From positions 1-41,088 of the IMG/VR virus record IMGVR_UViG_2579778622_000013: 41,088 nucleotides of DNA, one strand, 5' to 3'. Both the position numbers and the translations under genes were made by a program. Position 1 is the stretch's first letter; each line of letters starts with the position of its first letter. This DNA comes from a virus. Taxonomy: Duplodnaviria > Heunggongvirae > Uroviricota > Caudoviricetes. This document shows positions 5,209 to 38,407 of this stretch, piece by piece. Below the pieces are notes generated by a model that saw only the letters and a program-made list of their open reading frames with translations, did not search any database and had not been told where the DNA came from.

Positions 5209-5289
5209 AACTTGTTACCTCGGTCTGTTACCGTTGAGGTAATAATTATGCGTATCTGGTTTGATGTCAATAGATATGAGTTAAAAAAA

Positions 5290-5304
5290 TTACCCAAAAG
5301 GTAA
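5290..5304. promoter_or_regulatory. Operator-like palindrome TTACCCAAAAGGTAA at head of early-left operon (OL-like position)
   Basis: Perfect TTACC-N5-GGTAA dyad between repressor-gene terminator and first early-left gene. Confidence 0.5.
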
Positions 5305-5361: not shown

Positions 5362-5946
5362 TTATTGTTTGTTTTTTTCGTTCTGGTTGATGACAAATTC
5401 AATGTAACTTTCGATCTTTGCTTTCTCGGTTTCGGGTAACAATGCGTAGCGCGAGCGGTCATAGTTGATAGTCGCAGGGTCGTGCGGGTGAATCAGTAAT
5501 TCATAGCCATGACGCCCGAATGCGGATGCAACATTCTCCAGGGTGGAAATGGAAACGCTGACCTCATTGTTTAACAGGCGGCTGATTGTCACCTGGGCGA
5601 CGCCGGATGCGCGGTGAAGTTTTCCCTGCGTTGAAAGGTCGCGGCTTTCGCTCATCCAGCGTTCCAGGTTGTGAGCCGCCAGCTGACCAATGTCGCTTGG
5701 GCCGACAGGCTGAAAACCTTCCTGAGAAAGCGAGCGATCGATATCAAGCCAGTTACGGGGTTTATTGGCGGCAGCTTCAATTTTTCGTGCAACCTGGTCG
5801 CCGATAACCTTCTTGCCAAGAGCCCAGCGGTTTACCAGATTTGCCTGAGTTCCAAGTTTTTCTGCCATCCGCGTCTGAACACCATTGAATTCACGGTCGA
5901 TCAAGTCGTTGAGATTTTGCCTGCGGACGTCCTGGATACTTTTCAT
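5362..5946 (-). CDS. Prophage repressor (CI-like), tandem HTH, no LexA-type S24 autocleavage domain
   Basis: 194 aa; divergent from cro-like gene with three operators between; HTH-like segments near residues 25-60 and 110-150; no Ala-Gly / GDSM / Lys motifs. Confidence 0.65.
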   Translation of the reverse strand: MKSIQDVRRQNLNDLIDREFNGVQTRMAEKLGTQANLVNRWALGKKVIGDQVARKIEAAANKPRNWLDIDRSLSQEGFQPVGPSDIGQLAAHNLERWMSESRDLSTQGKLHRASGVAQVTISRLLNNEVSVSISTLENVASAFGRHGYELLIHPHDPATINYDRSRYALLPETEKAKIESYIEFVINQNEKNKQ

Positions 5947-6001: not shown

Positions 6002-6064
6002 TTACCCAACAGGTAAATGCACCTCATGGGTAACTATCCTTGATTTTTGTTACCTTATGGGTGA
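6002..6064. promoter_or_regulatory. Tripartite operator region between repressor and cro-like genes
   Basis: Three 15-bp dyads: 6002-6016 TTACCCAACAGGTAA, 6019-6033 GCACCTCATGGGTAA, 6050-6064 TTACCTTATGGGTGA. Confidence 0.65.
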
Positions 6065-6100
6065 ATATTTATTATCTGAAATAAATATCAGGCAATAGCT

Positions 6101-6386: not shown

Positions 6387-6401
6387 GTACCTCAAAGGTA
6401 A
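6387..6401. promoter_or_regulatory. Operator-like palindrome GTACCTCAAAGGTAA
   Basis: TTACC-N5-GGTAA family site directly after the terminator, upstream of the zinc-finger gene. Confidence 0.4.
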
Positions 6402-8332: not shown

Positions 8333-8409
8333 TTACCTGATGGGTAATAAAATATCCTAAAATCTATTGATTTCGTGTCTTATGTGGTTTTTAATTACCT
8401 CAGGGGTAA
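8333..8409. promoter_or_regulatory. Two operator-like palindromes upstream of nin-like operon
   Basis: 8333-8347 TTACCTGATGGGTAA and 8395-8409 TTACCTCAGGGGTAA; the second overlaps the RBS of the 8413 gene. Confidence 0.45.
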
Positions 8410-11744: not shown

Positions 11745-11793
11745 CATGTCACGAGTAGATTATGCATGATGAATTTGATGGGTTTTGAATACT

Positions 11794-11819
11794 GCCGCCA
11801 ACTATGGCGGCTTTATTTT
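11794..11819 (+). terminator. Rho-independent terminator preceding terminase operon
   Basis: 7-bp stem GCCGCCA/TGGCGGC, loop ACTA, then TTTATTTT. Confidence 0.6.
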
Positions 11820-11830
11820 GCATGGTACTA

Positions 11831-11845
11831 TTACCACAACGGTAA
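11831..11845. promoter_or_regulatory. Operator-like palindrome TTACCACAACGGTAA upstream of terminase small subunit
   Basis: Perfect dyad 18 nt upstream of terS RBS. Confidence 0.45.
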
Positions 11846-11862
11846 CAATTACCAGGGTGGTT

Positions 11863-12459
11863 ATGATGCCTGCTGAACCTAAAACCTATAAACGCAAATC
11901 AACGCAATTTAAGCCACTAACCGCAATGCAGGAGGCTTATTGCCAGTCATACATCAAAACGCCTGAAAACCAGACTCAGGCAGCGATTAACGCAGGATTC
12001 TCCCCAAATACAGCGGCAGTTAAAGCCAGTGTCATGATGCGCGATGAACGCATTCAAAAACGGATTGCCGAGTTGATGGAGGAGCGCAACAAACGAATGC
12101 GCGTCAGTGCCGATTACGTTCTCATGCGCCTGGTGGAGATCGACCAGATGGACGTGATTGATATCCTCAATGACGATGGGAGCCTTAAGCCAATCCGCGA
12201 GTGGCCGAAAATCTGGCGCACTACGCTTAGTGGCTTTGATCTGTCATCGACCATCATGAACATGAACGAGGATTCGATAGAGACAATCCTCAAAAAAATT
12301 AAATGGCCTGACAAGGTGAAGAACCTCGAACTGATTGGTAAGCACGTCGACGTCAATGCATTCAAAGAACGCCTGGATGTTAATGTGAATGTGACAATTG
12401 CTGATCGCATAGCGGCAGCCAGGAAGCGACTCAAAGAACGTCAGGATGGTAATCAGTGA
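11863..12459 (+). CDS. Terminase small subunit
   Basis: HTH-type segment AINAGFSPNTAAVKASVMMRD typical of terminase small subunits; overlaps terL start (GTGA). Confidence 0.75.
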   Translation: MMPAEPKTYKRKSTQFKPLTAMQEAYCQSYIKTPENQTQAAINAGFSPNTAAVKASVMMRDERIQKRIAELMEERNKRMRVSADYVLMRLVEIDQMDVIDILNDDGSLKPIREWPKIWRTTLSGFDLSSTIMNMNEDSIETILKKIKWPDKVKNLELIGKHVDVNAFKERLDVNVNVTIADRIAAARKRLKERQDGNQ

Positions 12460-13931
12460 CAGATACAGCGTTATCTCCTGAAGAGCAGTTGATCGAGGAT
12501 ATTGCAGGGTTCACTCACGATCCGCTTGGCTATGCCCTCTATGCGTTCCCGTGGGGGGAAGAGGGGACTGAACTGGCACATGCTACCGGCCCACGTCAGT
12601 GGCAGGCTGATGCGTTCCGAGAGATACGTGATCACCTGCAGAATCCAGAGACGCGCTATCAGCCGCTTATGCTGGCACGCGCTTCTGGTCACGGTATTGG
12701 TAAATCCGCATTCATCTCAATGCTGATCAACTGGGGCATGTCCACTTGCGAGGATTGTAAGGTCGTGGTGACCGCCAACACCGACAACCAGCTACGAACG
12801 AAGACCTGGCCGGAAATTATCAAGTGGTCGAACCTTGCTATCACGAAAGACTGGTTTACCTGTACCGCTACTGCGATGTACAGCAATGATCCTGGGCACG
12901 ACAAGCGGTGGCGAGCTGACGCAATCCCCTGGTCTGAGCACAACACTGAGGCATTCGCCGGACTACACAACGAGCGCAAACGCATCATCGTGGTATTCGA
13001 TGAAGCGTCGAACATTGCGGATCTGGTGTGGGAAGTTGCTGAGGGTGCGCTTACGGACGAAGACACTGAGATTATCTGGGTGGCGTTCGGAAACCCTACA
13101 CGTAATACCGGGCGTTTTCGCGAATGTTTCCGCAAATACAAACACCGCTGGAAAACTGCGCAGATTGACAGCCGGACGGTGGAAGGTACTAACAAACAGC
13201 AGTTGCAGAAATGGGTTGATGACTACGGGGAAGACAGCGACTTCGTTAAAATCCGTGTGCGCGGCATATTCCCTGATGCATCTGAATTGCAGTTTATCCC
13301 TACCGGTCTTACTGATGAGGCAATGAAACGGGTGGTAACCGCTGCGCAGGTGGCACATGCTCCGGTGATAATCGGTGTTGACCCGGCATATTCAGGCGTT
13401 GATGACGCGGTGATATACCTGCGGCAGGGGTTGCATAGTAAGGTGCTATGGACTGGCAACAAGACCACTGACGATCTGATTATGGCGAAGCGTATCGCTG
13501 ACTTTGAAGACCAGTATCAGGCTGACGCGGTGTTCATCGACTTCGGTTACGGAACCGGTCTGAAGTCAATCGGTGACGGGTGGGGGCGCACATGGCAACT
13601 TGTTCCGTTCGGTGGTGCGTCAACTGACCCTCAGATGCTCAACAAGCGCGGGGAGATGTTCAACTCATGCAAGACATGGCTGAGGTTGGGCGGGATGCTG
13701 GATGACCAGGAAACAGCGGACGATCTGTCGGCGGCAGAGTACAAAGTTCGCGTGGACGGTAAAATCGTTATCGAACCGAAGGAAGATATCAAAGAACGAC
13801 TTGGGCGTTCGCCTGGTAAAGGCGATGCGCTACTGCTGACGTTTGCTTTCCCGGTGTCAAAGCGCCTGCGACTTCCCGGGCAGCAGAACCAGCAAGGCAA
13901 GGCGCTTACCGAGTACGATCCATATGCTTAG
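12456..13931 (+). CDS. Terminase large subunit
   Basis: 491 aa; Walker A-like GHGIGKS, Walker B-like VVFDEAS, C-terminal nuclease-like region; position between terS and portal. Confidence 0.9.
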   Translation: MTDTALSPEEQLIEDIAGFTHDPLGYALYAFPWGEEGTELAHATGPRQWQADAFREIRDHLQNPETRYQPLMLARASGHGIGKSAFISMLINWGMSTCEDCKVVVTANTDNQLRTKTWPEIIKWSNLAITKDWFTCTATAMYSNDPGHDKRWRADAIPWSEHNTEAFAGLHNERKRIIVVFDEASNIADLVWEVAEGALTDEDTEIIWVAFGNPTRNTGRFRECFRKYKHRWKTAQIDSRTVEGTNKQQLQKWVDDYGEDSDFVKIRVRGIFPDASELQFIPTGLTDEAMKRVVTAAQVAHAPVIIGVDPAYSGVDDAVIYLRQGLHSKVLWTGNKTTDDLIMAKRIADFEDQYQADAVFIDFGYGTGLKSIGDGWGRTWQLVPFGGASTDPQMLNKRGEMFNSCKTWLRLGGMLDDQETADDLSAAEYKVRVDGKIVIEPKEDIKERLGRSPGKGDALLLTFAFPVSKRLRLPGQQNQQGKALTEYDPYA

Positions 13932-14746
13932 TCTTTATTTTTATCCTCGAAACCTGATAATCCAGATAGAACACCAAAGTTATTAAAAACGTTTGGCTTA
14001 CCAGATTTTAATCCGGATAAGTTGTGTTGCTCCAAAAAGTTGCTAATTGTTTGGCCGTTGCCAAGTGCAAGGCTTTTTATTTGAGATTTTTCAGGGTATT
14101 TGAGTTTGTATTCGTCGAAATCATTTTGGAGAGTCTTATATGCCTCATTCATTCTTCCAAGAGTTTCCGATATCTCTTTTAATGAATGATTTAGAGTTGC
14201 TAACTGAGCACTGGCGGATCTCAATTCGTCATCTTTAGCTTTCAACTCGGCAGTCAATTCCCCCATACTATTCTTTGATCGAATAATCTCTTCTTTCATC
14301 TCTTGGATGTCTTTTTCCGCGCCAGTCTTAACTTTGTCGTATGTAACATCTTTTTTAGCCAATAACCTCTGCAGTCTTGTTTCACGCTGGATTTTTCTTG
14401 CCTTCAGGTGATTTTCGATTGAGTCATTATTATCAAGAGGCTTTGCTTGCCATACGTTAATGATATTGTTTACCCATGGTAATAGGCAGCAGATAGCAAT
14501 TACAGATAAGCATGGATAAAACATAACAGTTTTCCATGTGCTGTTATCTGAGATATATGAAATTTTATCTATTATGTTTGATTTGCTAAAAAATAGATAA
14601 AGAATTGATTTCCAGTTGAAGGCGCACCAGGACATAACAAAAGCACCAAGCACAGGGTTTTTGGCTCGATTCACGGCAGTATTGGCAGTAGATAAAAACA
14701 GCTCTTTGAACGATTCAAACATGCTAATTACCTTGAAGTTTTTCAT
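13928..14746 (-). CDS. Membrane-anchored coiled-coil moron protein, function unknown
   Basis: 272 aa from ATG 14746; two hydrophobic helices then long coiled coil; AT-rich; stop overlaps terL stop (convergent). Confidence 0.55.
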   Translation of the reverse strand: MKNFKVISMFESFKELFLSTANTAVNRAKNPVLGAFVMSWCAFNWKSILYLFFSKSNIIDKISYISDNSTWKTVMFYPCLSVIAICCLLPWVNNIINVWQAKPLDNNDSIENHLKARKIQRETRLQRLLAKKDVTYDKVKTGAEKDIQEMKEEIIRSKNSMGELTAELKAKDDELRSASAQLATLNHSLKEISETLGRMNEAYKTLQNDFDEYKLKYPEKSQIKSLALGNGQTISNFLEQHNLSGLKSGKPNVFNNFGVLSGLSGFEDKNKD

Positions 14747-14750
14747 GATT

Positions 14751-14765
14751 ATACCTTTAAGGTAA
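14751..14765. promoter_or_regulatory. Operator-like palindrome ATACCTTTAAGGTAA at moron gene start
   Basis: Dyad immediately 5' of ATG 14746 on the minus strand, overlapping the RBS and a TATAAT-like hexamer. Confidence 0.4.
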
Positions 14766-14781
14766 TTTGCGGTCATCAAGC

Positions 14782-14805
14782 AAAAAAATGCCCGGCGAAC
14801 CGGGC
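14782..14805 (-). terminator. Rho-independent terminator (minus strand)
   Basis: Stem GCCCGG/CCGGGC, loop CGAA, followed by a T-run on the minus strand. Confidence 0.5.
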
Positions 14806-14876
14806 GAACTGGAAGCAATGAGTTATGCCTTCCGTGGCTGTACTGGTTTACAGCATGAAGTCATCGCAATGGCGTC

Positions 14877-14925
14877 CTGCTGTAAAAAGGGCGGTGATAG
14901 TCCTTCAAGGGAAACTATCACCGCC
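14877..14925 (-). terminator. 12-bp perfect stem-loop with T-run downstream of the tRNA
   Basis: GGCGGTGATAGT / ACTATCACCGCC with 12-nt loop, followed on the minus strand by CCTTTTTAC. Confidence 0.5.
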
Positions 14926-14968
14926 AAGCACCTGGAACTTCTGGCATCACGGTCCTTAGGCGTGATTC

Positions 14969-15045
14969 TGGCGTGGCATGCAGGATTCGAACCTGCGACC
15001 AACCGCTTAGAAGTCGGTTGCTCTGTCCAACTGAGCTAATGCCAC
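14969..15045 (-). tRNA. tRNA-Arg (anticodon UCU), phage-encoded argU-like
   Basis: 77 nt with CCA; cloverleaf GTGGCAT/ATGCCAC acceptor stem, D-arm GCTC..GAGC, anticodon loop CTTCTAA, T-arm GCAGG TTCGAAT CCTGC; similar but not identical to E. coli argU as recalled. Confidence 0.85.
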
Positions 15046-15367
15046 AACGCTGAGAGCACTTAGCCTGTTAAGGCACCACACTTTGTCGCGGCTCCATAAA
15101 TGCTCTCATCGTTGCACCCTCGTCTCTTCCGAGGTGTCACACCGAATCGCCGGGATGGTGAATCCCCGTGCGCGGAATAAAACCGCTCGACTTGCACATT
15201 CCGGCTATCTGGTTCGTTTGCCCGAGCAAGGGAGGGTGCCCCTTAAACGTATCCAGACCGCTATCGGCGCATGTGCCATACGCCGTACTGCTCAAAATAA
15301 AAGCTCACTCCACCTGTTCAATTTAACGACAAGCCAGTCAGGTTAGTAACCGGAATGAACCCTTTGC

Positions 15368-15382
15368 TTACCTGAAAGGTAA
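15368..15382. promoter_or_regulatory. Operator-like palindrome TTACCTGAAAGGTAA upstream of portal operon
   Basis: Perfect dyad ~90 nt upstream of the 15473 gene. Confidence 0.45.
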
Positions 15383-15472
15383 TAATTCGTGCGTTAAATG
15401 TCAACCATCTACGATAAATAAATCATATGTGGTTAAATTGGTAATAATTTAATTGCGTACGGAGTCATTGAT

Positions 15473-15679
15473 ATGTGCATGGGTAGCTCACCATCAGTGC
15501 CTGCAACACCAGAAGTTCAGGCAGCACCACAGGAGCAGGATGCCGCCGTTGTTGATGCCCGCGACGAAGAAACACGTCGCCGTCGCGCTGCTGCTGGTCG
15601 TAGTTCTACGCTGCTTACCGGTTCTCAGGGCGACACATCAACCGCTAATACCAGCGGTAAAACGCTGCTTGGTCAGTAA
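15473..15679 (+). CDS. Small protein preceding portal
   Basis: 68 aa; GGAG RBS; shares the initiation context CGGAGTCATTGA(T/A)ATG with the portal gene. Confidence 0.5.
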   Translation: MCMGSSPSVPATPEVQAAPQEQDAAVVDARDEETRRRRAAAGRSSTLLTGSQGDTSTANTSGKTLLGQ

Positions 15680-15693
15680 CCGGAGTCATTGAA

Positions 15694-17373
15694 ATGGCGG
15701 AAACAACTAAAGAGCGATTGAACAAACAGTTCGCACAACTTGAAAGCGAGCGTCAGTCGTTCGAGCCGCACTGGCGCGAGTTGAGTGATTACATCAACCC
15801 GCGTGGTTCCCGCTTTCTGACTTCTGAGGTCAACCGTAACGATCGACGCAATACACGCATTATTGATTCGACCGGGACTATGGCGGCGCGCACTCTCGCC
15901 AGCGGCATGATGTCAGGCATCACAAGCCCCGCGCGTCCGTGGTTTCGCCTGGCTACGCCAGATCCTGAAATGATGGATTATGGCCCTGTTAAGTTGTGGC
16001 TTGAGGCGGTGCAGAACCGCATGAACGATATGTTCAATAAGTCGAATCTCTATCAGTCTCTGCCGCAGTTATACGGAAGCCTCGGCACATACAGCACTGG
16101 TGCAATGGCAGTGCTGGAGGATGACGAGGACATCATTCGCACAATGCCATTCCCGATAGGCAGTTACTACCTGGCTAACTCACCTCGTGGCAGTGTGGAC
16201 ACCTGTTTTCGCAAGTTCTCTATGACTGTTCGTCAGCTTGTTCAGGAGTTCGGGCTAAATAACGTCAGCGAATCCGTAAAAAGCATGTGGGAAAGCGGCA
16301 CCTACGAGAAGTGGATTGAAGTGATGCATTCGGTTTACCCGAACATTGACCGCGATACATCGAAGCTGGATAGCAAGAACAAGCCATTCAAATCGGTTTA
16401 TTACGAGGTTGGTGGCGATAACGACAAGTTGTTGCGCGAGTCCGGATTCGATGAGTTTCCAATTATGGCTCCGCGCTGGGAAGTTAACGGCGAAGATGTT
16501 TATGGATCATCATGCCCGGGTATGCTGGCGCTTGGACCTGTTAAGGCATTGCAGCTTCTCCAGAAGCGCAAGTCGCAGTTGATTGATAAAGCCACCAATC
16601 CGCCGATGGTTGCTCCGACTTCCCTCAAGAATCAGCGTGCCTCCCTTCTTCCTGGCGACATCACGTATATCGATCAGATTACTGGTCAGGATGGTTTCAG
16701 GCCTGCTTATCTGGTTAACCCCAGTACAGCAGATTTGGTGGCAGACATTCAGGACACCCGTCAAATCATTAACAGCGCCTACTTTGTCGATCTGTTCATG
16801 ATGTTGCAGAACATCAATACCCGCTCGATGCCTGTTGAAGCGGTGATCGAAATGAAAGAAGAAAAACTTCTGATGTTGGGGCCGGTTCTGGAGCGTCTGA
16901 ACGACGAATGTCTTAATCCTCTCATTGACCGCGCTTTCTCGATGATGGTGCGTAAAAACATGCTGCCGCCACCGCCTGACGCGATGGAAGGCATTCCCCT
17001 GAAGGTCGAATACATTTCCGTCATGGCTCAGGCGCAGAAGTCTATCGGCCTGTCCAGTCTGGCGTCCACGGTTAACTTCATTGGTCAACTTGCGCAAGCG
17101 AAACCAGAAGCTCTCGACAAACTCAACGTTGATCAGGCGATCGATGCATTCGCTGATATGTCCGGAGTGTCTCCAACCGTCATTGTTCCGCAGGAACAGG
17201 TTGAGCAGGCTCGCCAGCAACGGGCACAGCAGCAACAGCAACAACAAATGATGGCGGTGGGGATGGCGGCGGCACAGGGTGCCAAGACGCTAAGCGAAGC
17301 TAAAACTTCGGATCCGAGTGTTTTGACAGCTATGGCGAATGCAGTTAGTGGTCAGGGTGGGCAATCACAATGA
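15694..17373 (+). CDS. Portal (head-to-tail connector) protein
   Basis: 559 aa, first large gene after terminase; size and position as T7 gp8. Confidence 0.8.
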   Translation: MAETTKERLNKQFAQLESERQSFEPHWRELSDYINPRGSRFLTSEVNRNDRRNTRIIDSTGTMAARTLASGMMSGITSPARPWFRLATPDPEMMDYGPVKLWLEAVQNRMNDMFNKSNLYQSLPQLYGSLGTYSTGAMAVLEDDEDIIRTMPFPIGSYYLANSPRGSVDTCFRKFSMTVRQLVQEFGLNNVSESVKSMWESGTYEKWIEVMHSVYPNIDRDTSKLDSKNKPFKSVYYEVGGDNDKLLRESGFDEFPIMAPRWEVNGEDVYGSSCPGMLALGPVKALQLLQKRKSQLIDKATNPPMVAPTSLKNQRASLLPGDITYIDQITGQDGFRPAYLVNPSTADLVADIQDTRQIINSAYFVDLFMMLQNINTRSMPVEAVIEMKEEKLLMLGPVLERLNDECLNPLIDRAFSMMVRKNMLPPPPDAMEGIPLKVEYISVMAQAQKSIGLSSLASTVNFIGQLAQAKPEALDKLNVDQAIDAFADMSGVSPTVIVPQEQVEQARQQRAQQQQQQQMMAVGMAAAQGAKTLSEAKTSDPSVLTAMANAVSGQGGQSQ

Positions 17374-32055: not shown

Positions 32056-32688
32056 TTAATGCAGTTTATCTTTGCTTATAACCAGTAGTCTGTGGGTATG
32101 CACATCTTTATCACTGCCCCAACAGAAATCAGCCCACTGGCTATAGAAATCATCCCATGATGCCATGAAGCTAAGAGGTCTATCTTCTTCAGAGCCATCT
32201 GAAACGTATACATTATATCCTGGGGTGTTTATAGCCCAAGAAATCATTCTTTCCCAGAATCTTCTCCCATCGATTGTTTGTTGCTCATCAGATACAACGA
32301 TCGCATATTGCTCTAGGAAGAACTGAAAAAAAATCTGAGGCAAACCATGAACAGCACGGTCATGAATAACATTAGGCGTACGCCATACCATGATCTGCGT
32401 ACATGTTCTTTTGGCTTCGACGATATCTTCCCGAAAGATTAACTTAACCGCATACACCGTTTCTGGAGTATCGCTGGTAGTAATCATTCTGTAATGATCG
32501 CCATTACAAGATTTTACAAGGCGATAACCATAAGGTGTTGTGAATCCCGGAAGAACGAAATCAACCACACCTTTCGCTAAGTAGCTTTCGGTGTGACTAG
32601 TGTTCTTCTCAGACATGTTCAGTTTTCTATCGAAATCTGCTTCTGGGATAATGTATGGCATCGCTTTTCTTGTTGTATTTGTTCTCAT
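32056..32688 (-). CDS. Hypothetical cytoplasmic moron protein (210 aa)
   Basis: Strong GGGAGGA RBS; AT-rich; no recognisable motif; own operator-containing upstream region. Confidence 0.6.
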   Translation of the reverse strand: MRTNTTRKAMPYIIPEADFDRKLNMSEKNTSHTESYLAKGVVDFVLPGFTTPYGYRLVKSCNGDHYRMITTSDTPETVYAVKLIFREDIVEAKRTCTQIMVWRTPNVIHDRAVHGLPQIFFQFFLEQYAIVVSDEQQTIDGRRFWERMISWAINTPGYNVYVSDGSEEDRPLSFMASWDDFYSQWADFCWGSDKDVHTHRLLVISKDKLH

Positions 32689-32747: not shown

Positions 32748-32762
32748 TTACCCTTGAGGTAA
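32748..32762. promoter_or_regulatory. Operator-like palindrome TTACCCTTGAGGTAA
   Basis: Perfect dyad ~60 nt upstream of the 32688 start codon. Confidence 0.45.
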
Positions 32763-32834: not shown

Positions 32835-33545
32835 TCAGAAGAACCCTGCCTTGTCGTTGATGTACTCCGCGTGCGTCTGGATATCACGCAGGCATTTGCT
32901 CACACCGACGATGTAGCAGAACATGGTGGTCAGCTCCGCCGCCGCGCCCGATACGTCGTGCCCGTCGTCCTGTAACTGGTTCAGCAGATTCATCAGCAGT
33001 GAGTTCTCCGTCAGGCCGAGAACACCAGACGGCGAGTGAATCAGGCTGCGGTAGCCGGGCTTCAGCGGGGCGCTGTAGGTTTTGTTCTCTATCTTCATTG
33101 CCTGCATCACTGCTGACGCCGTGGCGTTGGCTACCTGGTCGGCAACCATCTTTATGCGTTCTTCCTGCGGGAGCGAGTTTTTAATGTAACTTCCGGTGCG
33201 GCGGATCTGAGGAAGAACCTCACCTGTAACCCATTTACGAAAGCGGTAGGGGATAGTGCCTGGTGTCACTGCGTCGCGGCAGCGGAGGATCAGTGTGTAG
33301 AGGCCTGACTCGGAGATGATGTTGATCTCTTTTACTCGGCTGTCAAAAATTGCACGATGTTCATGCCCTATGTTGAACATAGACCTTTCATCATCATCCA
33401 GTTTTTCAAGTGCTTGGGTGACGTTTTGGATACGCAGCGCACTACAAACGTCTTGGGCTACAAACCATGGTTGGCCATCGATAATGATGGAACGGATAGG
33501 GTTAACAGATTCAAATTTGAAGATGGCAGTTTGAGCATTAGCCAT
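32835..33545 (-). CDS. Antirepressor, Bro-N/AntA-type N-terminal domain
   Basis: N-terminus MANAQTAIFKFE..IRSIIIDGQPWFVAQDVCSALRI typical of Bro-N/AntA; ATG 33545 with GGAGA RBS. Confidence 0.75.
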   Translation of the reverse strand: MANAQTAIFKFESVNPIRSIIIDGQPWFVAQDVCSALRIQNVTQALEKLDDDERSMFNIGHEHRAIFDSRVKEINIISESGLYTLILRCRDAVTPGTIPYRFRKWVTGEVLPQIRRTGSYIKNSLPQEERIKMVADQVANATASAVMQAMKIENKTYSAPLKPGYRSLIHSPSGVLGLTENSLLMNLLNQLQDDGHDVSGAAAELTTMFCYIVGVSKCLRDIQTHAEYINDKAGFF

Positions 33546-33942
33546 GGTGGTTATCTCCACTTAGTGATTTTAATCACCACCGCAACGCCAATTACTGGTG
33601 GTGAACTGGACAAGGTTGGCGTACCGGCCTAAGTGGTACCGGCGTCCTTTCGGACCCCTGCCCAGCCCACCATAATTCGGATATAGCTGTGCTTAACGCA
33701 TAAAAAAACCACGTCTGGCGTGGTATGCGCCACTTAGTAACTCGGGACGCCAATCCCGGCACTGGATTTTGCCAGTACCCGATTACTATGGCACAAGAGG
33801 AGTGCGATGTAAATTTACCGCAAAGGTAATGATAAACGCGTAGAAATATCAAAATCAACCGTATTTGGTTGATTGCGTTTAACGCTTGATCACCTGAAAG
33901 CAAGATATTACCTTTAAGGTAATGTTATTGTGAGGAAAAGCA
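33546..33942. promoter_or_regulatory. Divergent control region and long antirepressor leader
   Basis: Dyads at 33815-33829 and 33908-33922; minus-strand intrinsic terminator 33702-33724; palindrome GTGATTTTAATCAC at 33564-33577; three mutually complementary 9-mers. Confidence 0.45.
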
Positions 33943-34671
33943 ATGGAAGTTTTCTGGATAGTTGTTGGTGTGGTTGCGGTGATTATTTACGTTATCAACC
34001 AGAACAAGACTAAGATCTCTGATCGTACGGTCGTTAATCATAACAAAACGATAAAGACCGAAGATGGGGAGATAACGATTAATCGTACACAGGTGATAGA
34101 ACACACCTCTACTCAGTTTCAAAAAACTGGAGGTAATGCGCCTAATATTTCCGCACCTCCTGCTTATGATAGTGCGGTAATCCAGACATATTATAAACAG
34201 CAGGAGTTAGCAAAAGAGAGGCAACTGATTCAGCCAAAGCCATTTACAGCAGAGCTTCCACCTGGAGTGTCAACGCGTCCGGCATATCATGGAAGATTCC
34301 CTGGTGATGACACATCGTCTCAGTCACCTAAAAAAGCACCTCAGGCAGTATCAGAGCCAGCAAGAATACCTTCTGTATCGCCGCCAAAAGAAGAATCAGC
34401 TAACAGAGTTTCAAGTGGTAGCAAGCAGTGCTTGCGATGCAGAATAAATCTTCCATATGAAAAATTCAGGAAATCGTCAAAAAATCCAGATGGATTGACT
34501 AAGTGGTGTGCAAGGTGTCTCGATGGCCCAAAGAATACACGCCATATGAAGTGGTGCCCAATTTGTAATGTCCGCAGAAAACGAACAAGCTTTTACCCTA
34601 ATAATCAAAATGCGGACGGCTTAATGGCATGGTGCAAAACGTGCTGGGATGAGCACAAAGCGAAACGATAG
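33943..34671 (+). CDS. Membrane-anchored protein with tandem CxxC zinc-ribbon repeats
   Basis: N-terminal TM helix VFWIVVGVVAVIIYVI; two repeats C-x2-C..DGL..WC-x2-C at the C-terminus. Confidence 0.6.
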   Translation: MEVFWIVVGVVAVIIYVINQNKTKISDRTVVNHNKTIKTEDGEITINRTQVIEHTSTQFQKTGGNAPNISAPPAYDSAVIQTYYKQQELAKERQLIQPKPFTAELPPGVSTRPAYHGRFPGDDTSSQSPKKAPQAVSEPARIPSVSPPKEESANRVSSGSKQCLRCRINLPYEKFRKSSKNPDGLTKWCARCLDGPKNTRHMKWCPICNVRRKRTSFYPNNQNADGLMAWCKTCWDEHKAKR

Positions 34672-35027: not shown

Positions 35028-35042
35028 TCACCTGAAAGGTAA
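35028..35042. promoter_or_regulatory. Operator-like palindrome TCACCTGAAAGGTAA
   Basis: Dyad in the divergent region between the small SOS gene and the tailspike. Confidence 0.4.
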
Positions 35043-37990: not shown

Positions 37991-38407
37991 ATGGTGGAAA
38001 ATATGTCAGCTCAACTAACCAGTGAAACATTAAATCAGTGGCTTAGCATGAGTTCTCTGGCGGCGGTGATAGCAGGAGTGCCTCCTGAGGTTGCTTTGGG
38101 AGCTTTGGCTGGCGCGGTAATTTTTGTTACCTCTGCGGTAGAGTACCCAATTCGTCGTCGCGTACTCTTGTCGATGCTTAGTTTTCTCTGCGGACTTCTT
38201 TTCTACAAACCAGCAGCATCAATTCTTATCGGCATAGCCAGCCTGATACCTACCATCACGCAGGACTCTTTCGAGAAAGGGATTGTTTTCTCTGCTGGCG
38301 CATTTGTGTCAGCAATCGTCGCAGTACGAATTGGCATCTGGCTCTATCACCGTTCCGATAACCCACGCGAGTTAATTCCGGGGAGAAAAGAAGATGGTAA
38401 CGCATGA
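37991..38407 (+). CDS. Holin-like multi-TM membrane protein
   Basis: 138 aa with about four hydrophobic helices; two in-frame Met codons (M1, M5); upstream of endolysin. Confidence 0.45.
   Translation: MVENMSAQLTSETLNQWLSMSSLAAVIAGVPPEVALGALAGAVIFVTSAVEYPIRRRVLLSMLSFLCGLLFYKPAASILIGIASLIPTITQDSFEKGIVFSAGAFVSAIVAVRIGIWLYHRSDNPRELIPGRKEDGNA

Follow-up and report, generated by a model that had tools for sequence, protein, structure and literature searches.

What does a lone, AT-rich gene do inside the packaging and head genes of a prophage, on the strand opposite to its phage neighbours, and when is it expressed? This question is raised by IMG/VR record IMGVR_UViG_2579778622_000013, a stretch of 41,088 nucleotides (nt), here called the window, which is a phiV10/epsilon15-like (Uetakevirus) prophage whose terL region matches phiV10-type phages. 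The gene, to which we refer as the cargo gene, lies on the minus strand between terL and a tRNA-Arg gene, and encodes a predicted inner-membrane protein with a long coiled coil. The initial annotation had proposed that it is expressed in the lysogen. However, we found that a dyad in its promoter is the motif annotated as the repressor operator in epsilon15. Because this Rep-type operator lies between the -35 and -10 elements, the position predicts repression: the cargo gene would most likely be off in a stable lysogen, and its expression there appears doubtful.

The promoter is of the sigma-70 type (14748..14776, minus strand), with a -35 element ATGACC (14776..14771), a 17-nt spacer and a -10 element TATAAT (14753..14748). 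It matches the consensus at 10 of 12 positions and was the best promoter in the region in a consensus scan, with a predicted transcript start near 14741. Its spacer carries the perfect dyad TACCTTAAAGGTA (14752..14764), which has the form TACC-N5-GGTA and forms the core of the candidate Rep operator TTACC-TTAAA-GGTAT (14751..14765). When compared with the Rep-regulon motif ATTACC-N5-GGTAAT, the promoter was found to contain TTACCTTAAAGGTA at 14752-14765, overlapping the first bases of the -10 element. The centre of the operator falls at about -17, between the -35 and -10 elements, which stand at the optimal spacing of 17 bp.

The placement of the dyad depends on the start codon. The minus-strand open reading frame (ORF) spans 13928..14746 and encodes 272 amino acids (aa) from the ATG at 14746, the length also given in the RefSeq annotation (WP_000787773.1). 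In 29 of 29 aligned homologues the start is at Met9 of this frame, and the match to PHROG 4780, a family without assigned function, joins residues 9-272 to profile positions 1-267 of 275 (E 1.6e-137). In other loci the codon equivalent to ATG 14746 is CAG, CAC or TAG. Since the -10 hexamer ends only 1 nt before ATG 14746, the transcript would begin downstream of it. Taken together, these observations place the true coding sequence at 13928..14722, with 264 aa plus stop. A Shine-Dalgarno motif AAGG, read from the sequence at 14731..14734 (minus strand), lies 8 nt ahead of the Met9 ATG (14722..14720), and AAGG, AAGAG or AAGGG is kept at the same spacing in other loci. Of the 272-aa gene convergent on terL that had been described, the frame, the strand and the overlap of the stop codons (2 nt) are thus correct, whereas the start is not. 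Likewise, the operator-like dyad and the TATAAT-like hexamer are present, but with the start at Met9 the dyad falls within the promoter, across its spacer and -10 region, and misses the ribosome-binding site.

The protein presumed to bind the operator is the lysogeny repressor Rep (5362..5946, minus strand), a protein of 194 aa with two helix-turn-helix (HTH) domains, Pfam HTH_3 and a YdaS-like HTH. It is 100% identical to a coding sequence annotated as repressor in the record of phage ZX5, presumably the ORF21 repressor of the ZX5 study. In that study, overexpression of this repressor is reported to abolish free phage and to reduce the mRNAs of holin and endolysin by more than 99.9% (PMC9782041). 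Moreover, Rep is homologous to the Rep protein of phage SPC32H (PDB 5D50, E 4e-42), which occupies palindromic sites in tetrameric form until an antirepressor releases it (summarised in PMC9638917).

The dyad is strongly over-represented in the window. TACC-N5-GGTA has 13 exact sites, where 0.25 are expected and the maximum in 300 simulations was 2; for the full dyad with up to 2 mismatches there are 13 matches against 0.5 expected. Almost all sites are intergenic. They are found on the left-operator side (5229-5241, 5291-5303), as a tripartite set between the repressor gene and the cro-like gene (6002-6065, comprising 6003-6015 and the imperfect 6021-6033 and 6052-6064), after the cro-like gene (6388-6400), before a DUF1064 gene (8334-8346, 8396-8408), just upstream of the terS start (11832-11844), in the cargo promoter (14752), before a small ORF and the portal operon (TACCTGAAAGGTA, 15369..15381, the epsilon15 counterpart of which is annotated as a repressor site at 2931-2947), in the antirepressor region (32749-32761, 33816-33828, 33909-33921), with one mismatch before the tailspike gene (35029-35041), and at 38128-38140. 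In phiV10, 10 exact sites occupy equivalent intergenic positions; records of the phiV10 type do not annotate them as repressor-binding. Epsilon15 has 13 exact sites, and its record annotates ATTACC-N5-GGTAAT as "protein_bind: repressor, lysogeny" at seven, among them the ones ahead of terS, of the portal operon and of the tailspike gene. A site for a host factor of the NarL, MerR or CueR kind was considered for the dyad and rejected, because the motif is over-represented only within the prophage and matches the annotated Rep sites. The dyad in the cargo promoter therefore has the sequence of a Rep operator, from which we infer that Rep binds there.

Operators precede early, packaging, portal and tailspike units, and hence structural genes appear to be controlled directly by Rep, as by C1 of phage P1, and not only through a late activator. 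The likeness of P1 C1 and the epsilon15/SPC32H Rep proteins, in which one repressor serves many scattered promoters, is one of regulation and not of protein function. The cargo promoter would have been recruited into this regulon. Two further features of the antirepressor region were observed. Directly behind the perfect operator at 33909-33921 lies a gene (33943-34671, plus strand) for a 242-aa protein with an N-terminal transmembrane helix and a Cys-rich C-terminus (weakly Stc1-like), which may be another Rep-gated membrane protein. In addition, at 33594-33677 and 33702-33778 (minus strand) Rfam identified two small RNAs in tandem, one a C4 antisense RNA and the other isrK-like. They adjoin the Bro-N antirepressor gene (32835-33560, minus strand), in the manner of a P1/P7-style immI module that controls the antirepressor of this podophage.

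Among the alleles of the cargo gene the half-sites of the dyad are fixed, even in an allele of 30% identity, and only the central 5 nt vary (TTAAA, ATATC, ATAAC, TTAGA). The promoter architecture also precedes divergent alleles and is found in other phage types, so that the promoter travels with the gene. Upstream, an intrinsic terminator (GCCCGGTTCGCCGGGC followed by a T-run, 14790..14805, minus strand) ends the tRNA unit and insulates the cargo promoter; it is conserved as the right slot border with every allele, and also where the slot is empty. A second terminator with a 14-bp stem (14890..14925, minus strand) lies directly after tRNA-Arg. Because the stop of the cargo gene overlaps that of terL, no strong terminator follows the gene; only a weak terminator-like hairpin is found downstream, inside terL (13810..13794). 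On the plus strand, no factor-independent terminator was found between terL and the cargo gene.

We asked whether the cargo gene is a real and optional gene. Its GC content is 36.5% (36.6% at third codon positions, GC3), compared with 54.1% and 59.8% for terL, 51.8% and 58.4% for the portal gene, and an overall range of 47-54% and 54-60% for the flanking genes. The AT-rich character that had been noted by eye thus holds in a direct comparison of composition. Over codons 1-155 the ratio of nonsynonymous to synonymous substitution rates (dN/dS) is 0.05-0.10 where dS is unsaturated, which indicates purifying selection and therefore a real gene. No small RNA was found by Rfam in or beside the gene. 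Its codon usage differs as well: of 8 Arg codons, 4 are AGA and 1 is AGG, while terS, terL and the portal gene contain no AGA (11785-17373 compared). A tie between these codons and the neighbouring tRNA-Arg(UCU), which decodes AGA, was set aside as probably incidental, since the tRNA is present even in the empty slot.

The slot is bordered by terL (12456..13931, plus strand) on the left and by tRNA-Arg with anticodon UCU (14969..15045, minus strand; ARAGORN and Rfam) on the right, outside the cassette. The TAG of terL (13929-13931) overlaps the TAA of the cargo gene (complement of 13928-13930) by 2 nt, with the genes convergent. The order terS, terL, cargo gene, tRNA-Arg, small ORF, portal and capsid is that of Uetakevirus. 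The slot is either empty (locus L019, with tRNA-Arg retained), or occupied by a 123-aa Gp49-family gene (phiV10 gp03), which is the commonest state, or by one of at least five divergent cargo-family alleles, of 264, 282, 246, 201 or 296 aa, the others sharing 72%, 57%, 41% and 30% identity with the window protein. About 500 of 5,426 complete E. coli genomes have phiV10-type flanks and 38 carry the window allele. Most otherwise near-identical prophages have the cargo gene absent or replaced, and it is absent from phiV10, epsilon15 and ZX5. In one E. coli chromosome a 99.3%-identical prophage is integrated beside guaA, and there PGAP, the NCBI annotation pipeline, names the product "hypothetical protein" (WP_000787773.1).

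Several observations concern the slot itself. The alternative cargo of the Gp49/Sf6-gp66 family (123 aa; phiV10 gp03, 2278-2649 in loci L002 and L022; 2181-2546 in epsilon15) has neither a promoter nor a dyad of its own and starts 16 nt past the terminator of the tRNA unit. Without a promoter it would need read-through. At the terL-side junction the stops overlap in the window, whereas a 1-nt gap is seen in locus L016 and gaps of 4-23 nt in L017, L018 and L020; the right edge is formed by the same terminator in every allele (loci L036-L085 and L016-L020). A variable left junction with a constant right edge suggests that recombination has occurred repeatedly near the gene's 3' end, and not that there is a single insertion site. 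Directly 5' of tRNA-Arg lies a conserved element of about 245 nt (15042-15287, minus strand), with an RNA fold z-score of -2.2 on this strand. Copies of about 83% identity occur in about 400 E. coli genomes in CPS-53/KpLE1-like prophages, there in an unannotated gap between yfdP and an XRE repressor (locus L086), and the equivalent region of epsilon15 is annotated as an RNase III processing site. The element may be a structured leader or a small RNA.

The cassette is not confined to this slot. It is also found at the terL position of Salmonella and Cronobacter relatives. In a Klebsiella podophage it is flanked by replication and nin-type genes, in a Hafnia lambdoid prophage it adjoins int, xis and a methylase gene, in an Enterobacter lambdoid prophage it lies between the replication and RusA/Q regions, and a further copy is present in a remnant on a Cronobacter chromosome. 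The cassette always consists of one gene, and in every intact-prophage locus it lies on the strand opposite to its phage neighbours. Its status as cargo, a moron, is thus robust, given a lone gene on the opposite strand in many contexts. In terms of the Hendrix/Juhala description, the gene is present or absent at the same position among close relatives and differs in composition from its flanking genes. Of the flanking signals in that description, it has its own promoter and insulating terminators upstream, but downstream only the weak hairpin inside terL. The proposal of a moron in the initial annotation is hence borne out by its absence or replacement in near-identical prophages, its foreign GC content and the promoter that travels with it. 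A paper on the "Gally" prophage of LF82 was set aside, since the phage described there is of another type and no morons are reported in it.

We then considered what the protein may do. Residue numbers refer to the 264-aa protein, and comparisons over the family to a set of 131 diverse full-length relatives (190-514 aa). Alignments, hydropathy and AlphaFold2 (pLDDT, the per-residue confidence, 88-98) delimit a conserved N-terminal module (residues 1-160; 14243..14722, minus strand). It contains an amphipathic helix (residues 2-20), a first transmembrane helix (TM1, residues 23-45; 14588..14656, minus strand), a loop of 19 aa and a second one (TM2, residues 65-92; 14447..14530, minus strand), which is followed by a conserved juxtamembrane helix. 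In the window protein TM2 is strong (Kyte-Doolittle maximum 2.15) and TM1 marginal (1.1-1.2), while the means over the 131 relatives are 1.53 for TM1 and 2.01 for TM2, in line with the two N-terminal hydrophobic helices that had been described. Within TM1 lie the polar residues that are best conserved in the family, an N-W-K motif among them. Mean positive and negative charges over the relatives are 2.9/1.4 for the N-terminus, 2.4/3.3 for the loop and 6.4/4.6 for the 30 residues after TM2; these counts favour a topology with the N-terminus in, the loop out and the C-terminus in.

The AlphaFold2 model was poor with an alignment of 30 sequences (pLDDT 63, predicted TM-score (pTM) 0.25) and became confident with the 131-sequence alignment (pLDDT 86.6). 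It predicts helices at residues 2-20, 23-35, 37-45 and 50-60, an unbroken helix at 63-208 (pLDDT >90) that runs from TM2 into the soluble part, a helix at 210-232, and then a disordered tail. Disorder was predicted for the last ~55 residues and heptad-compatible windows for approximately residues 115-220. A coiled coil of about 150 residues had been proposed; the long continuous helix is supported, but since its 146 residues include TM2, the soluble helical part amounts to only about 115 residues.

The C-terminal module (residues 161-264; 13931..14242, minus strand) consists of the distal coiled coil, followed by a disordered tail that is rich in Gly, Ser and Asn and has KNKD as its last residues. 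It could not be aligned across the homologue alignment (29 sequences), and pLDDT drops below 60 after residue 210. Compared with the 282-aa allele, the protein is 95-100% identical over the first ~140 residues and 9-41% identical afterwards, with the drop at about residue 150. As dS is only 0.34, this reflects replacement of the C-terminal module and not gradual drift. Such a pattern, a conserved N-terminal module with a swapped C-terminal one, is typical of conflict genes, and the data support the view that the cargo is a genuine optional gene and a moron of the conflict type. A C-terminal K-x-K tag was rejected as a family feature, being present in only 71 of 376 relatives.

The initial annotation could not place the protein in a known family, and the database searches agree. 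For the cargo protein, Pfam, NCBIfam and PADLOC gave only coiled-coil noise (SMC, DndD, LmuB and JetC regions), with a weak best E-value of 1.8e-5 in PADLOC-DB 2.0 to the SMC-like coiled-coil regions of DndD, LmuB and JetC. PADLOC-DB 2.0 assigned neither the cargo protein nor the 131 relatives, which gave similar coiled-coil noise, to a known anti-phage defence family, and the N-domain of the relatives matched no Pfam family. No PDB sequence fell below E 0.1 with the N-domain profile, Foldseek with the confident model returned no neighbour (best E 2.4 in PDB and 0.63 in BFVD), and PHROG 4780 was the single strong match in PHROGs. Literature searches by protein accession or PHROG identifier found no mention of it. 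As far as these searches reach, the family is undescribed. It is large: the profile of the N-terminal 162 residues matched 2,385 cluster representatives (clusters at 50% identity) at E<=1e-3 and 343 at E<=1e-10, with the domain at the extreme N-terminus in nearly all listed matches. The named members are all called "hypothetical protein", and their main sources are Escherichia, Salmonella, Klebsiella, Enterobacter, Citrobacter, Cronobacter, Hafnia and Pantoea; contigs of about 110 kb carry several of them. The family resides mostly in Enterobacteriaceae prophages and likely phage-plasmids.

Overall, our tentative reading is that the cargo gene encodes a Rep-gated coiled-coil protein, anchored in the inner membrane by a hairpin, which acts in phage-versus-phage or phage-versus-host conflict during lytic development. 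The cassette would be self-contained, with a promoter and one gene placed in the terL/tRNA-Arg slot. Its product would carry a cytoplasmic amphipathic helix and a two-helix hairpin, with TM2 continuing into a long cytoplasmic helix that would associate in pairs as a parallel coiled coil. Of these parts, the hairpin and the juxtamembrane helix may represent the conserved working or anchoring module, while the exchangeable distal coiled coil and tail would most likely set partner specificity. In an established lysogen, Rep would silence the strong sigma-70 promoter. A burst of expression would be expected when Rep is absent or inactivated, either right after infection or when the antirepressor brings about induction. 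At later times, late transcription arriving convergently from terS-terL would work against the cargo gene: in the absence of a plus-strand terminator after terL, antisense late transcription from the Rep-controlled terS promoter may limit expression to an early window. In this time, the protein could serve as an effector of exclusion or of an abortive type, with the inner membrane as its site of action. Imm and Sp of phage T4 resemble the predicted timing, being early-lytic membrane proteins that could shut out later phages; they are small, lack coiled coils and show no homology in any library scanned, so that the likeness is one of logic only.

Independent support for a conflict role comes from DefensePredictor, which makes machine-learning predictions only. 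Its tables list WP_021523210.1 (296 aa) with log-odds of 5.9-6.05 and WP_024946521.1 (201 aa) with 4.36, both above the strict cutoff of 4 and labelled "predicted novel defense gene" (Science 2026, PMC13092281). Both belong to the cargo family, occupy the terL/tRNA-Arg slot (L017, 30% identity, and L018, 41%) and share the N-terminal hairpin as well as the promoter with the dyad. The transmembrane and coiled-coil systems DS-40 and DS-43, which were validated in that work, were compared too and are unrelated in sequence.

Several points weigh against the proposed role and gating. Neither flagged allele was among the 118 units cloned in the DefensePredictor study, the overall validation rate of which was about 45% (PMC13092281). 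That Rep binds the cargo site is deduced from its sequence. As TM1 is only marginally hydrophobic in the window allele, a single-pass topology with a periplasmic coiled coil would be possible. Promoter and dyad persist in the Klebsiella phage and the Hafnia lambdoid prophage, which have no other copies of the motif, and there the cargo gene may be constitutive. Several contexts other than phiV10-like phages show a decayed left half-site (loci L055, L056 and L010), and the distant allele of the Enterobacter lambdoid prophage has a different promoter and no dyad. Given this Enterobacter allele and the solitary motif in Klebsiella and Hafnia, repressor gating would be a feature of the lineage and not of the family. 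Finally, a role outside conflict, for instance in the timing of lysis or in host takeover, fits early-lytic timing equally well.

The latter would make the protein an early-lytic accessory that is not aimed at phages: a holin-like or antiholin factor in lysis timing, a protein that organises the membrane, or one that inhibits a membrane-associated defence or division factor of the host. We regard this as possible but rather unlikely. A Rep-type operator as on lytic promoters, a predicted cytoplasmic coiled coil and the dispensability of the gene agree with it, and the predicted hairpin with both termini inside is the topology of class II holins. These have two transmembrane helices, about 65-150 aa and a gene beside the endolysin, whereas the cargo protein, with 264 aa, is far above holin size and is encoded outside a lysis cassette. 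No holin family in Pfam or PHROGs and no spanin family matched it. Relatives such as phiV10 and epsilon15 have a complete lysis cassette elsewhere, with holin, endolysin and Rz/Rz1. An Rz-like inner-membrane spanin subunit, which would cross the membrane once with its C-terminus out and have an outer-membrane lipoprotein partner encoded with it in the lysis cassette, is also disfavoured by the two hydrophobic helices and the charge bias to a cytoplasmic C-terminus, and no embedded or adjacent lipoprotein ORF was found at the cargo gene. Moreover, conflict genes are the more typical setting for replaced C-termini and for a hotspot with several alleles.

A constitutive superinfection-exclusion or abortive-infection protein, expressed in the lysogen like SieA and SieB of P22 or gp15 of HK97, would require the operator to be leaky, non-functional or modulatory, and we consider it unlikely. 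The strong promoter insulated by terminators, the orientation antiparallel to the late operon, the foreign composition and the retention of the working parts in phages without other motif copies all speak for it, and the DefensePredictor calls fit it as well. The hypervariable C-terminus would resemble the specificity switching of exclusion proteins. P22 SieA and SieB (and SieB of lambda) are comparable as lone genes for inner-membrane-associated proteins, which in the P22 annotation have their own promoters on the opposite strand and which are accessory and variable between related phages. P22 sieA and sieB are expressed in the lysogen. The cargo promoter, however, carries the repressor operator motif: a perfect consensus Rep operator between -35 and -10, of the same class as the sites at lytic promoters and with half-sites conserved across alleles in phiV10-like phages. 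Homology to SieA or SieB was not found; hhalign of the diverse family alignment gave a probability of 0.9% against P22 SieB and 0.5% against P22 SieA, and PF14163 (SieB) matched neither the cargo protein at E<=10 nor the 131 relatives. In addition, SieA and SieB lack the long coiled coil that is predicted here. Lambdoid morons such as HK97 gp15 and lambda bor and lom are also inserted single genes with atypical composition, their own promoter and a flanking terminator. By definition they are expressed from the repressed prophage, in contrast to what the operator motif in the cargo promoter would predict, and unlike classical morons the cargo gene has no strong terminator after it.

A more elaborate version, which we judge improbable, would make the gene a tripwire. 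A potentially toxic membrane effector would be silenced by Rep and released when Rep is neutralised, either by the antirepressor of a superinfecting relative or upon induction, so that loss of immunity triggers exclusion or abortive killing, with the coiled coil choosing the target. If true, this would be a defence module that uses the immunity circuit of the prophage itself as sensor, in a previously undescribed family. A virion or assembly component, suggested by the position between terminase and portal inside the packaging and head gene block, is highly improbable for a membrane protein encoded on the opposite strand with foreign GC content, absent from phiV10, epsilon15, ZX5 and most such prophages, missing from the empty slot of L019 and present in replication or nin regions of unrelated phages.

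If the reading of a Rep-gated conflict protein holds, the repressor regulon of a prophage can take in a moron that was acquired by horizontal transfer. Such wiring of an acquired cargo promoter would be unusual. A very large unannotated family of prophage membrane proteins (~2,400 clusters) would gain a testable role and a domain logic of a conserved hairpin with an exchangeable coiled coil. The terL/tRNA-Arg junction of Uetakevirus-type prophages, which occur in roughly a tenth of complete E. coli genomes, would then be a cargo hotspot. Furthermore, it would be a warning that AT-rich prophage genes on the opposite strand need not be expressed in the lysogen, although their expression there is assumed in many prophage-defence screens.

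The slot may have a counterpart elsewhere in these prophages. The cargo region between the tail genes and the tailspike gene differs between the window (32056-32688) and its closest chromosome match (locus L001, 38463-39008), in which a YafO-family toxin is annotated, and it may represent a second variable region.

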